NCBI GenBank assembly: GCA_050633645.1
Contig: JBOEGX010000004.1
Span: 282,248-346,247, forward strand
Length of the DNA stretch: 64,000 nucleotides
Direction of reading: 5' to 3'
DNA from: Alphaproteobacteria bacterium
GTDB taxonomy: Bacteria > Pseudomonadota > Alphaproteobacteria > Micavibrionales > Micavibrionaceae
In this document: in pieces, positions 5,385 to 61,730 of the stretch
Numbering within the stretch: the first letter of the stretch is position 1
Layout of the letters: the number at the start of each line of letters is the position of its first letter
Notes under the pieces: model-generated
Told to the model about the DNA's origin: nothing
The model's input: only the letters and a program-made list of their open reading frames with translations
The model's database searches: none
Position numbers and translations under genes: made by a program

Positions 5385-6748
5385 CCTGCCGCCTTCTCAA
5401 TCACTTCGCATAAATCATTGACAACCGCCTCAACCAATGCCTCATCATCGCCTTCCGCCATAACACGGATCAACGGCTCCGTACCTGATTCACGCACAAG
5501 AACGCGCCCCTCACCGTTAAAGCGCTCCTGCGCCGCCGCAATTTCGTTACGAACCGCATCGGTTCCCATTGGACTTTCACCGCTAAAGCGCACATTCTTT
5601 AATATCTGCGGACAAGGCGTAAACATATTAAGCGCCTCACTCGCGGGAATACCCTTATGCTTGATATAGTTCAAGATCTGTAACGCCGCGAGCAAACCAT
5701 CACCCGTCGTCGCAAAATCACTCATAACAACATGACCGGATTGCTCCCCGCCAAGGTTAAACCCGTTCGCGCGCATATGCTCAACAACATATCGATCACC
5801 AACGGCGGTGCGCTCCAACGTCAAATCATTGGCCTGCATCAATCGCTCCAACCCTAAATTCGACATCACAGTAGCAACAAGTCCGCCGCCTTTAAGCATC
5901 TCCTGCTCTTTAAACCACAACGCCATCGCACCCATAATCTGGTCACCGTCAACCTTATCGCCATGCTCATTCACCAAAATCAGGCGATCCGCATCCCCAT
6001 CAAGCGCAATCCCGATATCCGCCTTATGATCAACCACCGCCTCTTGCAATCGCCCCGTCGCCGTCGCCCCATATCCATCATTAATATTACGCCCATTGGG
6101 TTGATTACCAATCGCGATAACCTCGCATTCCAATTCCCACAACACCTGCGGGGCAACCTTATACGCCGCGCCATTCGCGCAATCGACAACAACCTTCAAA
6201 CCCTCCAAAGATCCGCGATGCGGAATACTGCGCTTCAACGATTCAATATACCGCCCCAACGCATCATCCAAACGCGCGGCCTTCCCCATATCCTCAGGGG
6301 CCGAAAGCTCCGCGCTTAAATCCTGATCAATCTTCTCTTCAATTCTTACCTCAATATCATCAGCCAATTTAAAGCCATCCGCGCCAAACAACTTGATCCC
6401 GTTATCCTCATACGAATTATGAGACGCTGAAATCATAACGCCCAAATCCGCACGCAAACTCCGCGTCAATTTCGCAATCCCAGGCGTTGGAATCGGCCCT
6501 ATCAAAACAACATCCATCCCCATTGCCAAAAAACCCGCCGTTAAGGCTTGCTCAAACATATAACAAGACAAACGTGTATCTTTACCAATCACCACGCGAT
6601 CCATATGCTTTCCACCGCGTGAATGCCGCAAAACACTCCCCGCCGCCATCGCCACACGCATCGCCATATCTGCCGTCATCGGGTATGTATTGGCACGCCC
6701 GCGAATACCATCTGTGCCAAAATATTTTCTTTTATTTTCTGAGTTCAT
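5381..6748 (-). CDS. glmM: Phosphoglucosamine mutase
   Basis: 455-aa ORF with FGTDGIRG and the phosphoserine loop [13 protein letters not shown]. Confidence 0.97.
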
Positions 6749-12496: not shown

Positions 12497-12513
12497 TCGT
12501 TCAACTTCTATTT

Positions 12514-12613
12514 ATAATCGTTTGGATTTTTTCTGTGACGAGGCGCAAGCAACGAAGAATAGTTCACCTATTTTAGAAGCGCAGCAACGCATTCACAGGA
12601 TAACGATGCAAGA
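12514..12613 (+). repeat. Intergenic structured palindromic element, copy A
   Basis: Stem CTGTGA (12533-12538) pairs with TCACAG (12593-12598). Apical hairpin AATAG (12558-12562) pairs with CTATT (12568-12572). Conserved loop strings GGCGCAAGCAACGAAG and AAGCGCAGCAACG. The outer arms are weaker than in B-D. Confidence 0.75.
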
Positions 12614-13471
12614 TTAACGGCAATTAATCTTGGCCATCTCAGTATCCGCGCGCTTCAATAACGACACAGCCGAACCCGAATACTCACTCTTTAACTGCTT
12701 ATATGCAATGCACGCATCATCACTTTTCCCCATACCACTAAGCGCCATGCCAAGCTTTAACAAATTGCTCGCTGCCTTTGGACCTTTGGGAAATTGTTGA
12801 TACCCTTCCGCAAAGATACGCGCCGATTTCTCGTAATTCCCACGCACATAAAACGTCTCACCGTACCAGTATTTCGCATTGGATATCAGCGGATCATTCG
12901 GATACTCACCCATAAATTTCCCAAACTCATTCTCTGCGCGACTAAAATCACGCGCCTTAATAAATGAATACGCGTATTCATAGGCCTGCGCCGCCCCTAC
13001 CGAAGGGCGAACCTCTCCCGTATCAGGTGATTTATTCATCGTCCCCAATGTTTGGGTTTCTTTTGGCGGAGTATATTGAAAAGAACCGCTTGGCTTCTCA
13101 TCAACCTCCTCTTCCTCATCATCAAAACTCGACTGAGAGGTATAAGACGAACTCCCCGACTGATTATAAGGCGGCGGAGCAACAGCAGAAGCCCCACCAT
13201 TACCACCCTCAAGATCGCGCACACGCACATCAAGATCCCCCGTCACCTTCGAAAGTTCATTCTTCAAACGACGGATTTCAAAATTTTGTTCTTCAATTTG
13301 CCCTGTAAGGCGGCGGATTTCCTTTTCCATTTGCTGAAACCGAATTTCCATCTGCGCCGCCATAGCAGGATCAGACGATTGAGCCTGCAACATAGCAGGC
13401 TCCGCCAAAACCAGAACTCCAAAAGCACCTGCAAGAAGGCAAAGCTTTGTTTTCGTGTTTTTAATCGTCAT
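12614..13471 (-). CDS. cpoB: Tol-Pal system protein CpoB/YbgF
   Basis: Signal peptide, coiled-coil N-domain, acidic/Ser-rich linker, C-terminal TPR-like domain. Immediately downstream of pal. Confidence 0.9.
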   Translation of the reverse strand: MTIKNTKTKLCLLAGAFGVLVLAEPAMLQAQSSDPAMAAQMEIRFQQMEKEIRRLTGQIEEQNFEIRRLKNELSKVTGDLDVRVRDLEGGNGGASAVAPPPYNQSGSSSYTSQSSFDDEEEEVDEKPSGSFQYTPPKETQTLGTMNKSPDTGEVRPSVGAAQAYEYAYSFIKARDFSRAENEFGKFMGEYPNDPLISNAKYWYGETFYVRGNYEKSARIFAEGYQQFPKGPKAASNLLKLGMALSGMGKSDDACIAYKQLKSEYSGSAVSLLKRADTEMAKINCR

Positions 13472-15793: not shown

Positions 15794-15820
15794 CATTTTG
15801 CTTAATTAGTGACAAGGCGC
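15794..15820 (+). repeat. Solo left-arm fragment of the intergenic element
   Basis: CATTTTGCTTAATTAGTGACAAGGCGC aligns to the consensus left arm CGTTTGGCTTTATTTTGTGACAAGGCGC. No apical hairpin or right arm follows. Confidence 0.55.
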
Positions 15821-15833
15821 TAGTTTAGCACCG

Positions 15834-17137: not shown

Positions 17138-17161
17138 CGCTGTTTCTATTTTAAATATTAT

Positions 17162-17260
17162 AGTCGTTTCGCTTTACTTTAAGACAAGGCGCAAGCGACG
17201 AAATGTAGAAAACTACATAAGAAGTGCAGCAACGATGTCTTAAGGTAAATGGAAACCACT
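17162..17260 (+). repeat. Intergenic structured palindromic element, copy B
   Basis: 17162-17186 pairs with 17236-17260 without bulges (3 mismatches, 1 G.T). Apical hairpin ATGTAG (17203-17208) pairs with CTACAT (17213-17218). Ends 21 nt upstream of ATG 17281. Confidence 0.85.
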
Positions 17261-17280
17261 ATAAAGAGAATAACAGACTC

Positions 17281-21034: not shown

Positions 21035-21140
21035 AGTAAAAGTAGAAAAGTAGATGAGTAAAGGGAAGCCATAAAGGTTTCCCTTTATTTCTTGCACCCC
21101 CCCATAAAACACTGATACAATACGCCCAATGAATAAATAA

Positions 21141-21241
21141 AGTCGTTTGGCTTTATTTTGTGACAAGGCACAAGCGACGAAGCGTAGAATCCTACGTAAG
21201 AAGCGAAGTAACGATGTCACAGAATAAGTGCAAATAACTAT
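21141..21241 (+). repeat. Intergenic structured palindromic element, copy C (closest to consensus)
   Basis: 21141-21165 pairs with 21215-21239 (19 WC, 3 G.T, 3 mismatches). TGTGACA pairs with TGTCACA. Apical CGTAG (21183-21187) pairs with CTACG (21192-21196). Ends 22 nt upstream of ATG 21263. Confidence 0.85.
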
Positions 21242-21262
21242 AATAATTTTTTGGTGATAAAT

Positions 21263-22594
21263 ATGGGTGAGACCCCAGATAAAATGGATAGCTTTGAAAG
21301 AGCCTATGCGGAATTAAAACGCAATGAGCAAATCCCTTTGGCCGAGTCCAGTATAGCACAAAAAAATGAAATTATTGCCGACTTTCTTAGCCGGCGCTTC
21401 AATCAAAACGCCACCATTCCTGCCGATCACTATGGCCGTGAAACAATGTTCGGCGCCTATAAAAAAATAGACATAGATGAGTCCATCATAAGAAAAAACA
21501 ACGAAAACCTTGATGATCACAACCCAAAGGAAGCCTTAGAAAACAAGACCGATAAACCCTATGTGCTCAACAAAGCCATTGAAAACTCAACATCCCTAAA
21601 AGGCTTAGACCGAGCCACAGCCAAAGCCATAGAAAATCAAACAATAAGCGAAACAGAACTAAAAGAAAAATTCCCCCTCGCCGATTCCAATATCGTAAAG
21701 GCCGCCGCATATACGTTACTCAACACACAAAATGCCGCCGCAAATGATGGGGAAATAGACACAAATCTTCGGGACATGGCCATTACTCACCTACAATACG
21801 CCCATAAAGACAACCCATCATATGACCAATGGATTGCGTCCAAACAAGATGAAATAACAAAAACAATCACACAATCGCCCGAAATAATGCGCGATTTAAA
21901 ATCTCTAAAATGCCCACAAGACATTGAAACAACAGAACAATTAGAAGATCAATTCACAATCCGCCAACGCCTCGCAGAAAACCTCACCAATGTTTACGGC
22001 AAGGCCTATGGCGTGAACGATACATTCAACCAAAACGACAGCCACATTGTTTTCAAATCAAGAGAAGACCTGTTAAAAGATCCAACAAATGCCTATCTAT
22101 CATCAAATATCCCCGGCACACAAAACGATGAAACACTCATATACAGATACAACCCCGCATTTCAGATGAGCACAAAAAACGTTGCATCATATGCACAAAC
22201 AGACCAGGAAGAAGCACAACTTTTCCTAAACAGTATGAATGAAGAACTGCAACATGGCATTGACAATATTCTTGCTGATAAACTCGTTCTCGGCACGCTC
22301 AACCAACCCGAAGCAGAGCAACACGCCCTATCATACACCCTCAACAAACTATTCTACATAGACCCCAAAATAGAGCTACCAACCCATTCCGCAGACCGAA
22401 AGCACTATAACCAATCCATCGAAAAATACGCAGACCAATATGTAGAGAAAACCGCAAAAGACACTGCCGAAAAAGTGACGAGCGCCGTAATGGCAAACTA
22501 TGATAAGGACATCCCCGAAACCACAGTCAGCGTGAATGACACACTCCCTCCTACGGAACAACCAAGCCTCTTGGATAGAATTTTCAAACTCTAA
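21263..22594 (+). CDS. Hypothetical protein (~443 aa, acidic, no TM)
   Basis: Long uninterrupted ORF. First ATG at 21263 (the track start 21251 is TTG). No family recognised. Confidence 0.55.
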   Translation: MGETPDKMDSFERAYAELKRNEQIPLAESSIAQKNEIIADFLSRRFNQNATIPADHYGRETMFGAYKKIDIDESIIRKNNENLDDHNPKEALENKTDKPYVLNKAIENSTSLKGLDRATAKAIENQTISETELKEKFPLADSNIVKAAAYTLLNTQNAAANDGEIDTNLRDMAITHLQYAHKDNPSYDQWIASKQDEITKTITQSPEIMRDLKSLKCPQDIETTEQLEDQFTIRQRLAENLTNVYGKAYGVNDTFNQNDSHIVFKSREDLLKDPTNAYLSSNIPGTQNDETLIYRYNPAFQMSTKNVASYAQTDQEEAQLFLNSMNEELQHGIDNILADKLVLGTLNQPEAEQHALSYTLNKLFYIDPKIELPTHSADRKHYNQSIEKYADQYVEKTAKDTAEKVTSAVMANYDKDIPETTVSVNDTLPPTEQPSLLDRIFKL

Positions 22595-25198: not shown

Positions 25199-25373
25199 TT
25201 TTCTCCTTAAATAAAATTTAGATACAAAACGGGCGGCATCAGCCAACAAACACAACGCCGCCCGAAAAATATTTTAAGCTAACATATTCTAATCAAAGAA
25301 TTTTCTGGCGAAACCTCACTAAAGCAAACAGATCCTCGACGAAAACTCACTTCAAAGAGAAATGTCACGAAAG

Positions 25374-25446
25374 CCAAGCGTTTCAAGAACCGGAAGCGTA
25401 AATGTAGTCACCCTACATGCGAACCGGAAGCACACAAACGCTTGGT
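25374..25446 (+). repeat. Palindromic element in the ahpC-ahpD spacer, same architecture as copies A-D but different sequence
   Basis: Outer inverted repeat CCAAGCGTTT (25374-25383) pairs with AAACGCTTGG (25437-25446). Direct repeat AACCGGAAGC (25388-25397 and 25422-25431) flanks apical hairpin ATGTAG (25402-25407) paired with CTACAT (25413-25418). Confidence 0.7.
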
Positions 25447-25470
25447 TTGCAGTGCATTTATCGCAGAAGA

Positions 25471-42324: not shown

Positions 42325-42363
42325 ACGCAGCAACGATGCCACAAAATAAATCCAAGCGACTAC
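42325..42363 (+). repeat. Solo right-arm fragment of the intergenic element
   Basis: ACGCAGCAACGATGCCACAAAATAAATCCAAGCGACTAC aligns to the right arm of copy C (GCGAAGTAACGATGTCACAGAATAAGTGCAAATAACTAT). No left arm or apical hairpin. Confidence 0.6.
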
Positions 42364-57577: not shown

Positions 57578-57583
57578 AAAAAA

Positions 57584-57606
57584 GCGGGGCGATAAACCCC
57601 ACTTTT
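57584..57606 (+). terminator. Modest intrinsic terminator after bcp
   Basis: GGGG (57586-57589) pairs with CCCC (57597-57600) plus flanking pairs, followed by TTTT (57603-57606). Confidence 0.4.
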
Positions 57607-57617
57607 CAATTCACTTT

Positions 57618-57722
57618 AAAAGTGATTTGGCTTTGTCTTCTGGCTAGGCGCAAGCAACGCAGTATAGAAACCTATATAAGTTGCGCAGCAACAACACCAG
57701 AAGGCAAATGCGAATTACTTTT
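57618..57722 (+). repeat. Intergenic structured palindromic element, copy D
   Basis: 57618-57643 pairs with 57697-57722 without bulges. Inner stem CTTCTGG (57637-57643) pairs with CCAGAAG (57697-57703). Apical TATAG (57663-57667) pairs with CTATA (57672-57676). Ends 3 nt before the convergent hydrolase stop. Confidence 0.85.
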
Positions 57723-57724
57723 CC

Positions 57725-58564: not shown

Positions 58565-59695
58565 ATGAAAAAACAAATTTACCTTGATTACAACGCAAGC
58601 GCACCCCTGCGCCCCCATGCAAAAGAGGCAATGCTCGGCGTTTTATCGGTTAAAAACGGAGCATTAAACGCGTCATCCGTCCACAGCTTCGGCCGCGAAG
58701 GCCGCAAAATCATCGAGCACGCTCGCGAAAACGTCGCAAAACTCGTAAGTGCCGATACCAACCAAGTCCTCTTCAACAGCAGCGCAACCGAGGGCAACAA
58801 CACGGTTATCCGTCATTTTGCAGAAAACTTTCCCGATGACATCATTTTAATTTCTGCCGCCGAACACCCTTCAATTTTGGAACTGGCGCAAATTTACAAA
58901 AACATTAAAATCATTCCCGTCGATGAAAACGGATTGGTCGAAACCACCACTCTGGAATCCGCACTCAAAGACAACAAAACATCTTTGGTTTCCTGCATTT
59001 GGGTGAACAACGAAACAGGTTCAATACAAAACGTATCGGATTTATGCAAAAAAGCGCATGAAAACGGCGCATTTTTCCACACTGACGCCACACAAGCCGT
59101 CGGCCGCATTACCACAAACACAAAAGAAAACGCCATCGATTTCATGACAATTTCATCCCATAAAATTGGTGGACCACAAGGCGCAGGTGCGCTCATCCTT
59201 GGGCTATGCGGGCCAACGCCAACCCTGCTCCATGGCGGCGGTCAGGAAAAATCCGCCCGCGCAGGCACGGAAAACATCGCCGCCATAGCGGGCTTTGGCG
59301 CGGCGGCAAAAGAGGCGCTTGAACACCTCAATCATTATCAGGCTCTAGGCCAGTGGCGCGACGAATTAGAATGCAAAATCAAAAACATATCTCCCGAAGC
59401 TGTCATCCATTGTGAAAACGCGAACCGCGTGTCCAACACATGCTTTTTCAGCCTCCCCAATGCAAACGCCCAAACCATGCTCATGGCCTTTGACCTCGAA
59501 GGAATAGCCATCAGCAACGGCTCGGCTTGCTCCAGCGGCACAGTCAAGCCAAGCACAACATTAAAAGCCATGGGAACCTCTGAAACAATATCAAATAGCG
59601 CCCTGAGAATCTCTTTAGGATGGGCAAGCGAGAAAAGTGATATTGACGCATTCATAAAAGCATGGGAAAAGATATATATGCGCGTCAAAATATAA
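58565..59695 (+). CDS. Cysteine desulfurase (NifS/IscS-like, class V aminotransferase)
   Basis: PLP-Lys motif SSHKIGGPQG. Catalytic loop GSACSSG. Confidence 0.93.
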   Translation: MKKQIYLDYNASAPLRPHAKEAMLGVLSVKNGALNASSVHSFGREGRKIIEHARENVAKLVSADTNQVLFNSSATEGNNTVIRHFAENFPDDIILISAAEHPSILELAQIYKNIKIIPVDENGLVETTTLESALKDNKTSLVSCIWVNNETGSIQNVSDLCKKAHENGAFFHTDATQAVGRITTNTKENAIDFMTISSHKIGGPQGAGALILGLCGPTPTLLHGGGQEKSARAGTENIAAIAGFGAAAKEALEHLNHYQALGQWRDELECKIKNISPEAVIHCENANRVSNTCFFSLPNANAQTMLMAFDLEGIAISNGSACSSGTVKPSTTLKAMGTSETISNSALRISLGWASEKSDIDAFIKAWEKIYMRVKI

Positions 59696-61484: not shown

Positions 61485-61547
61485 AAAATATTTGCATCGC
61501 GCACCAATTATATGAATAATATCCTATAAACGCGCTTCCACGCCTAT

Positions 61548-61612
61548 AGTCGTTTGACTTTACTTTGTGACAAGCCGCAAGCAACAACAATCAGAAACAA
61601 ACTGATAAACCG
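61548..61612 (+). repeat. Intergenic element, copy E (left arm + apical hairpin, right arm degenerate)
   Basis: AGTCGTTTGACTTTACTTTGTGACAAGCCGCAAGCAACAACA, then hairpin ATCAG-aaacaaa-CTGAT. The expected right arm is not recognisable. Confidence 0.65.
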
Positions 61613-61727
61613 CATTTTACACCAAAAACGAACTGATAAAAAACCGTATAAAATCAATCACTTAAAAAGCCACCTAAAAGGACACACACAACGAACTGAA
61701 AGATGGAACTGATAAAACGAACTGAAG
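61597..61727 (+). repeat. Cluster of five AACTGA(T/A)A motifs, the last three as 13-nt tandem units
   Basis: AACTGA cores start at 61600, 61631, 61694, 61707 and 61720. 61691-61729 reads ACGAACTGAAAGA|TGGAACTGATAAA|ACGAACTGAAGCC. Confidence 0.6.
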
Positions 61728-61730
61728 CCA

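Follow-up and report, generated by a model that had tools for sequence, protein, structure and literature searches.

A hairpin repeat family of Micavibrio-like alphaproteobacteria is probably a Correia/ERIC-type miniature transposon

Correia, ERIC and RUP elements have been grouped as TA-flanked MITEs with target-site duplications, among which RUP alone has an inferred mobiliser, IS630-Spn1 (Delihas 2008). Correia elements (CREE or NEMIS) are defined by a length class of 104-108 bp (or 153-157 bp), a target duplication and a directional core (PMC2649163; PMC5039591), and the mechanism that mobilises them is not determined (PMC2649163). As further CREE traits, RNase III binds or cuts the transcript hairpin, long forms carry an IHF site and the ends can form promoters. 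Reviews present these elements as a feature of Neisseria. For ERIC, orientation-dependent effects on mRNA have been reported (Delihas 2008).

Here we analyzed a hairpin element in a 64-kb stretch of alphaproteobacterial DNA (the window). All of its occurrences there are on the + strand: four full copies (A-D), a decayed one (E), two halves and a variant. The copy positions given in the original prediction were recovered by a repeat finder at 17159-17264, 21138-21243, 57618-57723, 12513-12565 and 61545-61597. A covariance model (R1) also retrieved the predicted truncated copy and, at ~15 bits, the architectural variant, and the two predicted solo arms were seen in the sequence. The features are listed below, with copy C divided into its parts.

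12513-12619, + strand: copy A, full element with weaker stems (R1 87.7 bits; fold z -2.35)
15794-15826 (approximate), + strand: remnant G, 5′ arm as far as the start of the left core (sequence)
17159-17264, + strand: copy B, full element (R1 108.3 bits)
21138-21243, + strand: copy C, full element and the subject of this study (R1 100.5 bits; fold -33.7 kcal/mol, z -5.5)
21140-21164, + strand: left terminal inverted repeat of copy C, pairing with 21215-21241
21165-21182, + strand: left core of copy C, AAGGCACAAGCGACGAAG; family consensus AAGGCGCAAGCGACGAAG
21183-21196, + strand: apical hairpin of copy C, CGTAG-AATC-CTACG
21197-21214, + strand: right core of copy C, TAAGAAGCGAAGTAACGA; family consensus TAAGGAGCGCAGCAACGA
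21215-21241, + strand: right terminal inverted repeat of copy C, making GTCACA-17-TATAAT with the flank
25358-25462, + strand: variant H (R1 15.2 bits, E 0.43; motif scan)
42325-42363, + strand: remnant F, 3′ half only, right core and right arm (sequence)
57618-57723, + strand: copy D, full element (R1 92.7 bits)
61545-61641, + strand: copy E, 5′ half intact and 3′ half decayed (R1 22.5 bits)

The left terminal inverted repeat of copy C comprises the 5′ arm of the outer helix P1, a 2x2 internal loop and the middle helix P2; this arm aligns with the TCAGGAC end of the Correia repeat, and the left-core motif that follows is also found in Correia (AAGGCGACGAAGCC) and ERIC (AAGGCGACAAGCGAG). Covariation in the apical hairpin is seen at pairs 51/67 and 52/66, with the TAG/CTA part almost invariant. 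The right core reads AGGAG-N10-ATG in many copies. Variant H keeps this layout around ATGTAG...CTACAT with a different direct repeat (GAACCGGAAGC, twice), and a motif scan of the sequence data examined found no second copy of it. Copy C lies in the 5′ leader of a gene of 447 aa, between the promoter-like TTGCAC-18-TACAAT and the ATG at 21264. Copy B occupies the divergent rsmI/lppC spacer ~20 nt upstream of the lppC-like start codon, copy A lies antisense between cpoB and tilS, and copy D has a bidirectional terminator (57583-57606) on one side and a hydrolase gene's stop codon on the other.

Sequence scans and the covariance model revealed ~35 further copies in ~16 species-level MAGs; this multi-copy family is restricted to MAGs of Micavibrio-like alphaproteobacteria. 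Full copies span 105-109 bp with the termini TATAGTCG…CGACTATA and contain the motif AAGCGAC three times in direct and once in inverted orientation. The end patterns read TATAGTCG...GACAAGGCG on the left and GCAACG.TGT...CGACTATA on the right. The distribution is patchy and the density differs among genomes; no intact copy was found in the 11-21 kb loci of four relatives (L082, L084, L085 and L086), and the representative of M. aeruginosavorus has no exact match to the core. Scanning genome contigs with the core pattern gave 81 loci, 52 of which are chance matches in high-GC DNA, with no match to R1; the remaining 29 show no synteny with the window. BLASTN of the copies against plasmid and phage collections returned no match. 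At the gathering threshold, Rfam models matched nothing in the window and only a tRNA in eight loci, and in E-value mode they gave only chance matches of generic hairpins (miRNA precursors). A literature search for the core strings returned only unrelated papers. The hairpin family is real and apparently undescribed.

The fold proposed for the element was reproduced: a 2x2 internal loop separates the outer helix from a long middle helix, and a large internal loop rich in purines lies between the latter and an apical hairpin of 5-6 bp. Folding z-scores were -2.4 for copy A and -5.5 to -6.9 for the other three full copies (B, C and D). We likewise confirmed that the RTAG...CTAY hairpin is flanked by the direct repeat GCGCAAGCRACGA / GCGCAGCAACGA. 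Across 33 copies, the 28 stem pairs are 89.9% paired, compared with 40-48% when partners are slid, and 22 of them show double changes, a covariation matched by none of 500 shuffles. The pair-type table of the + strand contains ~54 G.T cells against ~9 A.C cells, and the + strand is more stable than the - strand in 30 of the 33 copies with RNA parameters and in 29 with DNA parameters. In 25 of the 33, the apical stem keeps a G.U pair at its base. Two statements of the original prediction went too far. The loops, described as the most conserved residues, exceed the stems only mildly (majority fractions of 0.85 for core 1 and 0.79 for core 2 versus 0.70-0.76 for the stems, from nine copies outside the search-pattern selection). 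The two cores were said to be unable to pair with each other, which is too strong because a few pairs are predicted between the loop strands, including a tandem G.A motif.

Covariation alone does not prove selection on an RNA, because MITE subfamilies start with complementary arms. Some constraint on the fold or the sequence of the element is nevertheless real. This is supported by the excess of G.T over A.C, which by reasoning opposes the direction of mutational skew, by compensatory changes in the orthologous copies of L070 and L012, and by copy D. The latter is 93% identical to its ortholog in L087, where third-codon positions of the neighbouring genes are 56-58% identical, and this conservation suggests that copy D is under selection. 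For the discovery of RNA motifs, the family is a caution that a MITE can give strong covariation and conserved loops.

Comparison of syntenic relatives uncovered filled, empty, decayed and nested sites. The B site holds an intact copy in the window and a decayed one in L082, and it is empty in L083-L086, where the spacer is 43-55 nt. Relatives lack copies A, C and E: L084 and L086 have an empty A site and L085 an overlap of its two genes, the C site is empty in L086 and L083, and the genes flanking E abut or overlap in L087 and L089. Copy D is mostly deleted in L088, and in L087 a further copy is nested in it with a single TA on each side. Two genes that overlap one another in the window, L082, L084 and L086 are separated by a copy in L083, and this insertion site has 24 extra nucleotides with a possible 5-bp repeat. 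At codon 6 of iscS, the element lies inside the gene in L087 and L088, while the site is empty in the window (CAAATTTACCTTGAT) and in L089 (CAAATTTATCTCGAT). The filled site of L088, CAAATT-TA-[TAGTGGG...GCCGATA]-TA-TCTCGAT, makes one clean filled/empty pair with a TA target-site duplication. The consensus flanks are TA on both sides; the iscS pair is the only one in which the duplication is unambiguous, other sites being AT-rich or rearranged, and it is ambiguous at B, at C, at the L083 site and at the nested L087 copy. We found no transposase or full-length parent element in the window, no transposase among the genes with a Pfam annotation at the eight loci of syntenic relatives, and no IS element in the window or these loci.

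We consider it likely that this is a MITE, a non-autonomous DNA transposon, of the Correia/ERIC type. Its assignment to a new family of this type rests on the TA duplication, an end-to-end match to Correia and a core shared with ERIC, which are described below. The element had been proposed to be either a new structured RNA or a REP/RIME-like repeat. It does belong to the multi-copy, intergenic, palindromic REP/MITE kind, and the original prediction had even named an IS630-like gene as a possible mobiliser. A new stand-alone RNA is not supported, since copies are gained, lost, decayed and nested, TA is duplicated at one insertion, the neighbouring genes are unrelated and some copies are antisense. 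The copies listed in the window are thus best read as MITE insertions.

Element copies supply translation signals at gene edges, namely stop and start codons as well as ribosome-binding sites. In L087 and L088, the right core serves as the ribosome-binding site and start codon of iscS, whose product begins with MSENKRKPIYLDY in place of MKKQIYLDY, and a BON-domain gene takes its TAG stop from the element. In about 13 copies of subfamily 2, AAAGGAAG precedes the ATG of unrelated genes by ~9 nt. Judged from translated N-termini, the downstream genes include coxC, thrC, hisA, gpsA, kdsB, gor, ileS, hflK, hsp20 and tal among others; a riboswitch or regulon leader was rejected because these genes are unrelated. 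Copies often abut the neighbouring ORF and therefore leave no room for a promoter there. A consensus scan detected an outward promoter-like site at 3 of 41 junctions per end versus 1% in controls. The family thereby shows transposon life in a very compact genome, bringing its own stop, ribosome-binding and start signals and replacing even the first codons of iscS.

Some of these properties could also be expected of a cis-acting structured RNA family spread by duplication, in which the folded + strand RNA is the selected product, mobility is incidental and the symmetric purine-rich loop is bound by a protein, so that the element acts as an mRNA stabiliser, a processing site or a translational coupler. 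Besides the covarying stems, the compensatory changes in orthologous copies, the retained apical G.U pair and the conservation of copy D, such a function would fit the 15 sense versus 6 antisense copies at tandem gene pairs and the architecture of subfamily 2, where the downstream ribosome-binding site lies within the outer helix right after the upstream stop codon. We nevertheless regard it as quite improbable: Rfam gives no match, the neighbouring genes are functionally unrelated, copies turn over between close relatives, and intact copies lie antisense to both neighbours in L074, L056, L040 and L083. In addition, copy D is conserved though positioned for transcription as the weaker bottom strand, and a simple account based on top-strand RNA fails there. 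The TA duplication and the similarity to Correia offer a simpler origin.

As a MITE, the element would insert at a TA dinucleotide and duplicate it, presumably moved in trans by a transposase encoded outside the window. Co-transcription with a neighbouring gene, which we infer to be usual after insertion, would produce a long irregular hairpin of ~22-25 bp plus the apical stem. This hairpin may change the stability or translation of flanking genes, as an analogy to Correia (RNase III) and ERIC (RNase E, ribosome access) suggests. TAG or TAA at the entry end could close an ORF, and AGGAG-N10-ATG of the right core, or AAAGGAAG in the 3′ arm of one subfamily, could restart translation; arm and junction may sometimes form a sigma-70-like promoter. 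Useful copies would then be kept by selection and the rest would decay.

The insertions are strongly oriented with respect to replication. In 42 of ~46 insertions (~90%), the better-folding strand is on the C-rich strand, i.e. the element takes one orientation relative to GC skew whichever strand the genes are on, and by reasoning the C-rich strand is the leading-strand template. A symmetric-ended cut-and-paste transposon predicts no 90% bias by itself, and so strong a bias is unusual for a TA-duplicating MITE. It may be a property of the insertion step or result from orientation-dependent loss of palindromes, between which the evidence does not choose; the idea of loss has no direct support because strand stability is not reversed in the four copies of opposite orientation.

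A REP/REPIN-like process, in which an HUH nuclease (Y1, RAYT or IS200/IS605-type) handles single-stranded DNA at the fork through the RTAG hairpin and the identical loop strands, would accommodate the strand-specific folding, with G.T far above A.C and a more stable top strand, as well as the GTAG-like tetranucleotide conserved in the apical stem. We give this process only a slight chance, because the cores are direct repeats rather than two inverted REP units and a TA target duplication is present. To our knowledge, HUH single-strand transposition produces no target duplication, and we know of none for REP units. The Y1 transposase domain was found in none of the 20 window proteins scanned. 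Orientation that follows the replication strand is known for IS200/IS605 (PMC3971601; PMC3333891), and the related Correia and ERIC families lack a known transposase (PMC2649163; Delihas 2008); however, the better-folding strand of the element lies on the C-rich strand, by reasoning the leading-strand template, whereas IS200/IS605 use the lagging-strand template (PMC3333891). The CGTC-1 REP of Micavibrio aeruginosavorus (Di Nocera 2013) is a different, unrelated repeat; judged by its encoded peptide, it looks like a ATTCCCGC...GCGGGAAT-type repeat.

The shared orientation of the insertions might instead mark a DNA site of the host chromosome, a polar site for protein binding or secondary structure tied to replication or segregation. 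The three direct and one inverted AAGCGAC of each copy are compatible with such a site, as is the conservation of copy D where use as RNA looks unlikely. This is very improbable in view of the patchy distribution, the four relative loci that are devoid of an intact copy, the decay of copies, the insertions inside genes and the varying density. The element resembles attC sites in co-orientation only. Identity with attC was rejected because the ends run GT...AC, in the opposite order to RYYYAAC...GTTRRRY, and the genes are housekeeping genes on both strands.

There is a small but appreciable chance that insertion or retention of Correia, ERIC and this family depends not on a cut-and-paste transposase but on a strand-specific process that is coupled to the replication fork and recognises the folded core. 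This suggestion is based on the shared non-terminal cores, the 90% strand bias and the preference for the better-folding strand. If it is true, Micavibrio-like genomes would be a third independent lineage in which the missing mobilising enzyme could be sought by phylogenetic profiling.

Among described repeats, REP/REPIN-RAYT systems share high copy number, intergenic location, hairpins, a GTAG-like motif and strand-specific folding with the element, but REP units are palindromes of 20-40 nt in inverted doublets. Two further families were compared by description only. CIR (Caulobacter and Brucella; CcrM-associated) is alphaproteobacterial, ~110 bp, intergenic and bounded by TA termini; it differs in having two arms with a linker and a conserved GANTC in the loop, whereas the element is one end-to-end hairpin and only copy C contains GANTC. 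RUP of Streptococcus pneumoniae has 107 bp, TA insertion, terminal inverted repeats and a hairpin. An IS630-type origin as for RUP agrees with the TA duplication, but no IS630-type parent was found in the window or the eight relative loci.

The similarity to ERIC extends to the sequence. The core AAGGCG(A)CAAGCGA also occurs in E. coli ERIC (z 3.9-4.6), which R1 scores at 16.3 bits forward versus 1.3 reverse. ERIC (IRU) has TA at both termini (TATACTC...GAGTATA, compared with TATAGTC...GACTATA in the element), there is little difference between the left cores AAGGCGACAAGCGA and AAGGCGCAAGCGA, the right core is rich in GAGCG..GCAGCA, and both form a single long intergenic hairpin. ERIC is longer (~127 bp) and has another, highly conserved central inverted repeat, CCCCAG...CTGGGG. 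The central part of the element differs from this repeat, the one used for ERIC-PCR primers; only the termini and the flanking cores are common, and with z ~4 and 16 bits the similarity is weaker than that to Correia.

The closest match is Correia, for which we used real sequences from IMG/VR. R1, built only from Micavibrio-like copies, matches the 106-nt Neisseria Correia element end to end. Across the whole model it scores short Correia copies at 42.2, 34.1, 29.5 and 28.9 bits (E 1.6e-7 to 3.5e-4) and lists only one strand of each. In global alignments, 66-71 of ~105 positions are identical (63-67%), with z 6.5-7.5 and no equal among 2000 shuffles; z is 6.6 against a hairpin-preserving null, and the score is 55 forward versus 9.5 for the reverse complement. 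Sequence-only similarity is marginal (nhmmer best E 0.012), and part of the R1 score is therefore due to shared hairpin geometry. Common descent with Correia is likely, and the original prediction, which recognised no named family, has to be revised to a match to Correia and a weaker one to ERIC.

The two elements agree in size (104-108 bp for the short Correia class and 105-109 bp here), duplicate TA, begin with TATAGT(C/G)G and form one long hairpin from the 5′ to the 3′ end. Their arms of ~26 nt end in ...CAG(G)AC and are followed by AAGGCG...ACGAAGC, a small central palindrome (GTAC..GTAC in Correia, GTAG..CTAC in the element) and the right core AAGG.G..GCAACG.TGT, so that the order and direction of the cores match. 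Insertions of both are found inside ORFs, with ORF fusions, as well as at gene starts, and both place a -35-like hexamer 16-17 nt from the terminal TATA. They differ in host, Neisseria versus an alphaproteobacterial MAG lineage, and the 26-bp terminal Correia repeat (TATAGTGGATTAA[CAAAAA/ATTTAA]...) is not present in the element, whose arms match only its first 8 nt (TATAGTCG or TATAGTGG) and its inner end (..CAGAC/GTGAC). Moreover, the left core of the element has an extra CAAGCG, and no form of 153-157 bp with an IHF site was seen. The replication-strand orientation bias was observed for the Micavibrio-like family. Because the 26-bp arms otherwise differ, we refer to the element as Correia-like and not as a strict CREE. 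A relative of Correia in distant, uncultured alphaproteobacteria, taken with the core that ERIC has in common, is indicative of a wider superfamily and provides a comparative handle on which parts of these elements matter and which gene co-occurs with them.

The repeat is real. Rather than a new structured RNA gene, it is a MITE of the Correia/ERIC type, carried by a Micavibrio-like lineage of Alphaproteobacteria. The copies and the fold of the original prediction were both recovered by a repeat finder, by folding and by R1, a covariance model built from copies of the element. The repeat finder placed family starts at 12513, 17159, 21138, 57618 and 61545 (copies A to D and the decayed copy E) and a 3′ arm at 42327, and half copies were visible by eye at 42325-42363 and about 15794-15826. 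Every window copy lies on the + strand. R1 scored B at 108 bits, C at 100, D at 93, A at 88 and E at 22.5. In each full copy the hairpin runs from an outer helix through a 2x2 internal loop, a long middle helix and a large internal loop rich in purines to an apical stem of 5-6 bp, with folding z-scores down to -6.9. The gene content is that of an ordinary chromosome, with purA, glmM, ftsH, tilS, cpoB, rsmI, an lppC-like gene, tyrS and iscS in the window. A variant was also found:

25358-25462, + strand: variant element, single copy, R1 15 bits

The variant is laid out like the family, with an outer helix, the loop strand GAACCGGAAGC present twice and a hairpin ATGTAG...CTACAT at the apex, but differs in loop and arm sequences and may represent a second, rare family.

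Scanning one genome per species with the pattern GGCGCAAGCRACG-N20-32-GCAGCAAC returned 81 loci, comprising 29 true copies and 52 chance matches in high-GC DNA; R1 had no match on the 52 chance loci. The true copies come from about 16 MAGs labeled Micavibrio, Rhodospirillales, Alphaproteobacteria or, in two MAGs, Bdellovibrionales. Within the true loci R1 detected six further copies, all on the strand of the first copy of their locus. At the compared locus L013, a tRNA gene (6068-6141) begins 8 nt past an element copy.

Among 33 aligned copies, the 28 pairs were 89.9% paired, compared with 40-48% when partners were slid, and 22 of them showed double changes; the observed values were reached by none of 500 shuffles, which bears out the covarying stems proposed from the sequence. 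The argument that G.T pairs favor the + strand also held, as the pair-type table of this strand contained about 54 G.T cells versus about 9 A.C cells and the + strand was the better folder in 29-30 of the 33 copies. Mutational skew would, by our reasoning, work against such a surplus of G.T over A.C, which makes some selection on the fold likely; several G.T positions, however, were inherited from master copies and are not independent events. The cores, the purine-rich loop strands on either side of the apical hairpin, had been called the most conserved residues. They were more conserved than the arms (the terminal inverted repeats), but only slightly, with majority fractions of 0.85 and 0.79 versus 0.70-0.76 in nine copies outside the pattern selection.

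Selection acts on some copies but not on others. The window and the syntenic relative L087 have copies of D that are 93% identical, against 56-58% identity at third-codon positions of its neighbors. In the relative L082, B has decayed and its identity is 75%. Three element sites are common to genomes that have only 61-83% identity in the flanking proteins, and three compensatory changes are seen in the arms of the L070/L012 pair of loci.

The original prediction had offered either a new structured RNA or a REP/RIME-like multi-copy element. The latter stands in that the element is multi-copy; the former does not, as the element is mobile and Correia/ERIC-like. The proposed comparison with Rfam returned no family matching the element. 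A riboswitch of one regulon was rejected since the genes downstream are functionally unrelated. Many copies abut a neighboring ORF, and often only a few nucleotides separate them from the preceding stop or following start, leaving no room there for a promoter of their own; intact copies also occur antisense to both neighbors. An attC site was dismissed for its wrong end polarity and the housekeeping neighbors, and a REPIN because the two cores are direct, not inverted, repeats. Nor is the element the CGTC-1 REP reported in M. aeruginosavorus.

Mobility was evident from syntenic relatives (L082-L089) obtained via RsmI and IscS homologs. The window has an intact element at site B; L082 (RsmI 84% identical) has a decayed one with arms that no longer pair, and in L083-L086, which have a 43-55 nt spacer, the site is empty. 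Empty versions of sites A, C and E also occur in relatives. One copy is common to L087 and L088 and absent from the window and L089; a second L087 copy is nested within the 3′ arm of D, and D is mostly deleted in L088. Coordinates of two insertions:

L083, 7877-7981, antisense: element copy between the BON-domain gene and the next gene
L087, 9923-10030, and L088, 9925-10030: clean iscS insertion; empty site at window 58565-58590

An ATGA overlap joins the BON-domain gene to the next gene in the window and in L082, L084 and L086; in L083, the TAG stop of the BON-domain gene comes from the element, and the junctions carry 24 extra nucleotides and a repeated TATGA. The empty iscS sites of the window and L089 read ATGAAAAAACAAATTTA(C/T)CT(T/C)GAT, whereas the filled site reads CAAATT-TA-[TAGTGGG...GCCGATA]-TA-TCTCGAT, a TA duplication. 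The insertion point is codon 6, and iscS survives because the right core AAGGAG and the ATG of the 3′ arm restart translation in frame, so that MSENKRKPIYLDYNAS replaces MKKQIYLDYNAS at the N-terminus (also given as MSENKRKPIYLDY for MKKQIYLDY). The element is non-coding, inserts at TA, and has been gained and lost between relatives.

A promoter-like TTGCAC-18-TACAAT at window 21084-21118, with a counterpart at the same place in L086, lies upstream of copy C and places it in the 5′ leader of a 447-aa gene that has no Pfam match. At window 57583-57606 lies an intrinsic terminator, GCGGGGCGATAAACCCCAC, flanked on either side by A and T runs and conserved in L087 and L088; copy D sits between it and the hydrolase stop codon. 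Short CGAACTGA(T/A)AAA repeats at 61640-61730 adjoin copy E, and the 246-nt spacer is missing from L087 and L089, the two genes there being contiguous or overlapping.

Also of interest is the replication-strand bias of the element. The window + strand is strongly C-rich (GC skew -0.10 to -0.35, GC3 skew -0.47, AT skew up to +0.29). Skew is likewise pronounced in L082-L089 (GC skew -0.16 to -0.29) and in some Micavibrio-like MAG loci such as L007, L040 and L056 (GC3 skew -0.5 to -0.67); that of the window and relatives is far above expectation for an alphaproteobacterium. The better-folding strand of all seven window copies is on the C-rich strand, as is the top strand of the element in 26 of 30 loci, window included. 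The six extra R1 copies orient as the rest of their locus and the four new insertions in relatives orient alike, giving about 42 of 46 insertion events with the top strand on the C-rich strand. Coding sequence is split 50:50 between strands, so gene strand does not explain the bias. Several IS families are known to show an orientation bias with respect to replication, and IS630 is classed as 'mixed' (PMC3971601). That of the element can be read in two ways. Insertion may be coupled to the replication fork. Alternatively, copies may be lost faster when the stabler hairpin can form on the lagging-strand template, an idea that reportedly goes back to Trinh and Sinden in 1991. The direction fits such loss, since by our reasoning the G-rich lagging-strand template carries the weaker strand, but the two strands differ little in stability (1.9 kcal/mol with DNA parameters) and the four exceptions lack reversed stability.

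The ends of the element carry gene-boundary signals. In the subfamily with the 3′ arm AAAGGAAGTGACTA, about 13 copies precede, by ~9 nt, the start codons (ATG) of genes unrelated to one another. Here the 2x2 loop of the outer helix holds the two G's of the ribosome-binding site, and the stop codon of the upstream gene immediately precedes the 5′ arm, an arrangement that would couple translation of both genes. A -35-like hexamer occurs 16-17 nt from the terminal TATA, and an outward promoter-like site was found at 3 of 41 junctions per end versus 1% in controls, resembling the Correia 'Black' promoter (PMC2649163). When co-transcribed, the element would fold into a long hairpin and probably be an RNase III substrate by analogy with the Correia transcript hairpin, for which this has been shown; effects of ERIC via RNase E and ribosome access have been reported. 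In a compact genome, the element can be seen as a source of signals for stop, ribosome binding and start.

The TATAGT.G termini, the TA duplication and the size led us to the Correia elements of Neisseria, of which repeat variants have been published (PMC5039591). Reviews list Correia for Neisseria sp. only, and its mobilizing mechanism is not determined according to one (PMC2649163). R1, built only from alphaproteobacterial copies, was run on real Correia copies from IMG/VR (L090-L108) and on an E. coli ERIC copy (L109). Along the whole model it matched the 106-nt Correia form with 42, 34, 29.5 and 29 bits (E 1.6e-7 to 3.5e-4 in 145 kb, one strand listed per copy); the element, earlier not recognized as a named family, therefore resembles a described repeat. 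In global alignments, 66-71 of about 105 positions were identical (z 6.5-7.5; 6.6 under a hairpin-keeping null); none of 2000 dinucleotide shuffles reached the score, which was 55 forward versus 9.5 for the reverse complement. Common to both are the terminus, a small central palindrome, GCAACG.TGT on the right and, leading into AAGGCG...ACGAAGC, the inner end of the arm. With an HMM based on sequence alone the match was marginal (E 0.012), so geometry common to both accounts for part of the signal; common descent is likely but unproven. The E. coli ERIC copy has the ends TATACTC...GAGTATA and the left core AAGGCGACAAGCGA; it aligned to the element with z 3.9-4.6, and R1 scored it at 16.3 bits forward versus 1.3 reverse. 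Correia and ERIC themselves align globally in one orientation only (z 4.4), with the core AAGGCGAC... in both. By similarity, the element belongs with the Correia/ERIC group, a cross-class link to two orphan MITE families.
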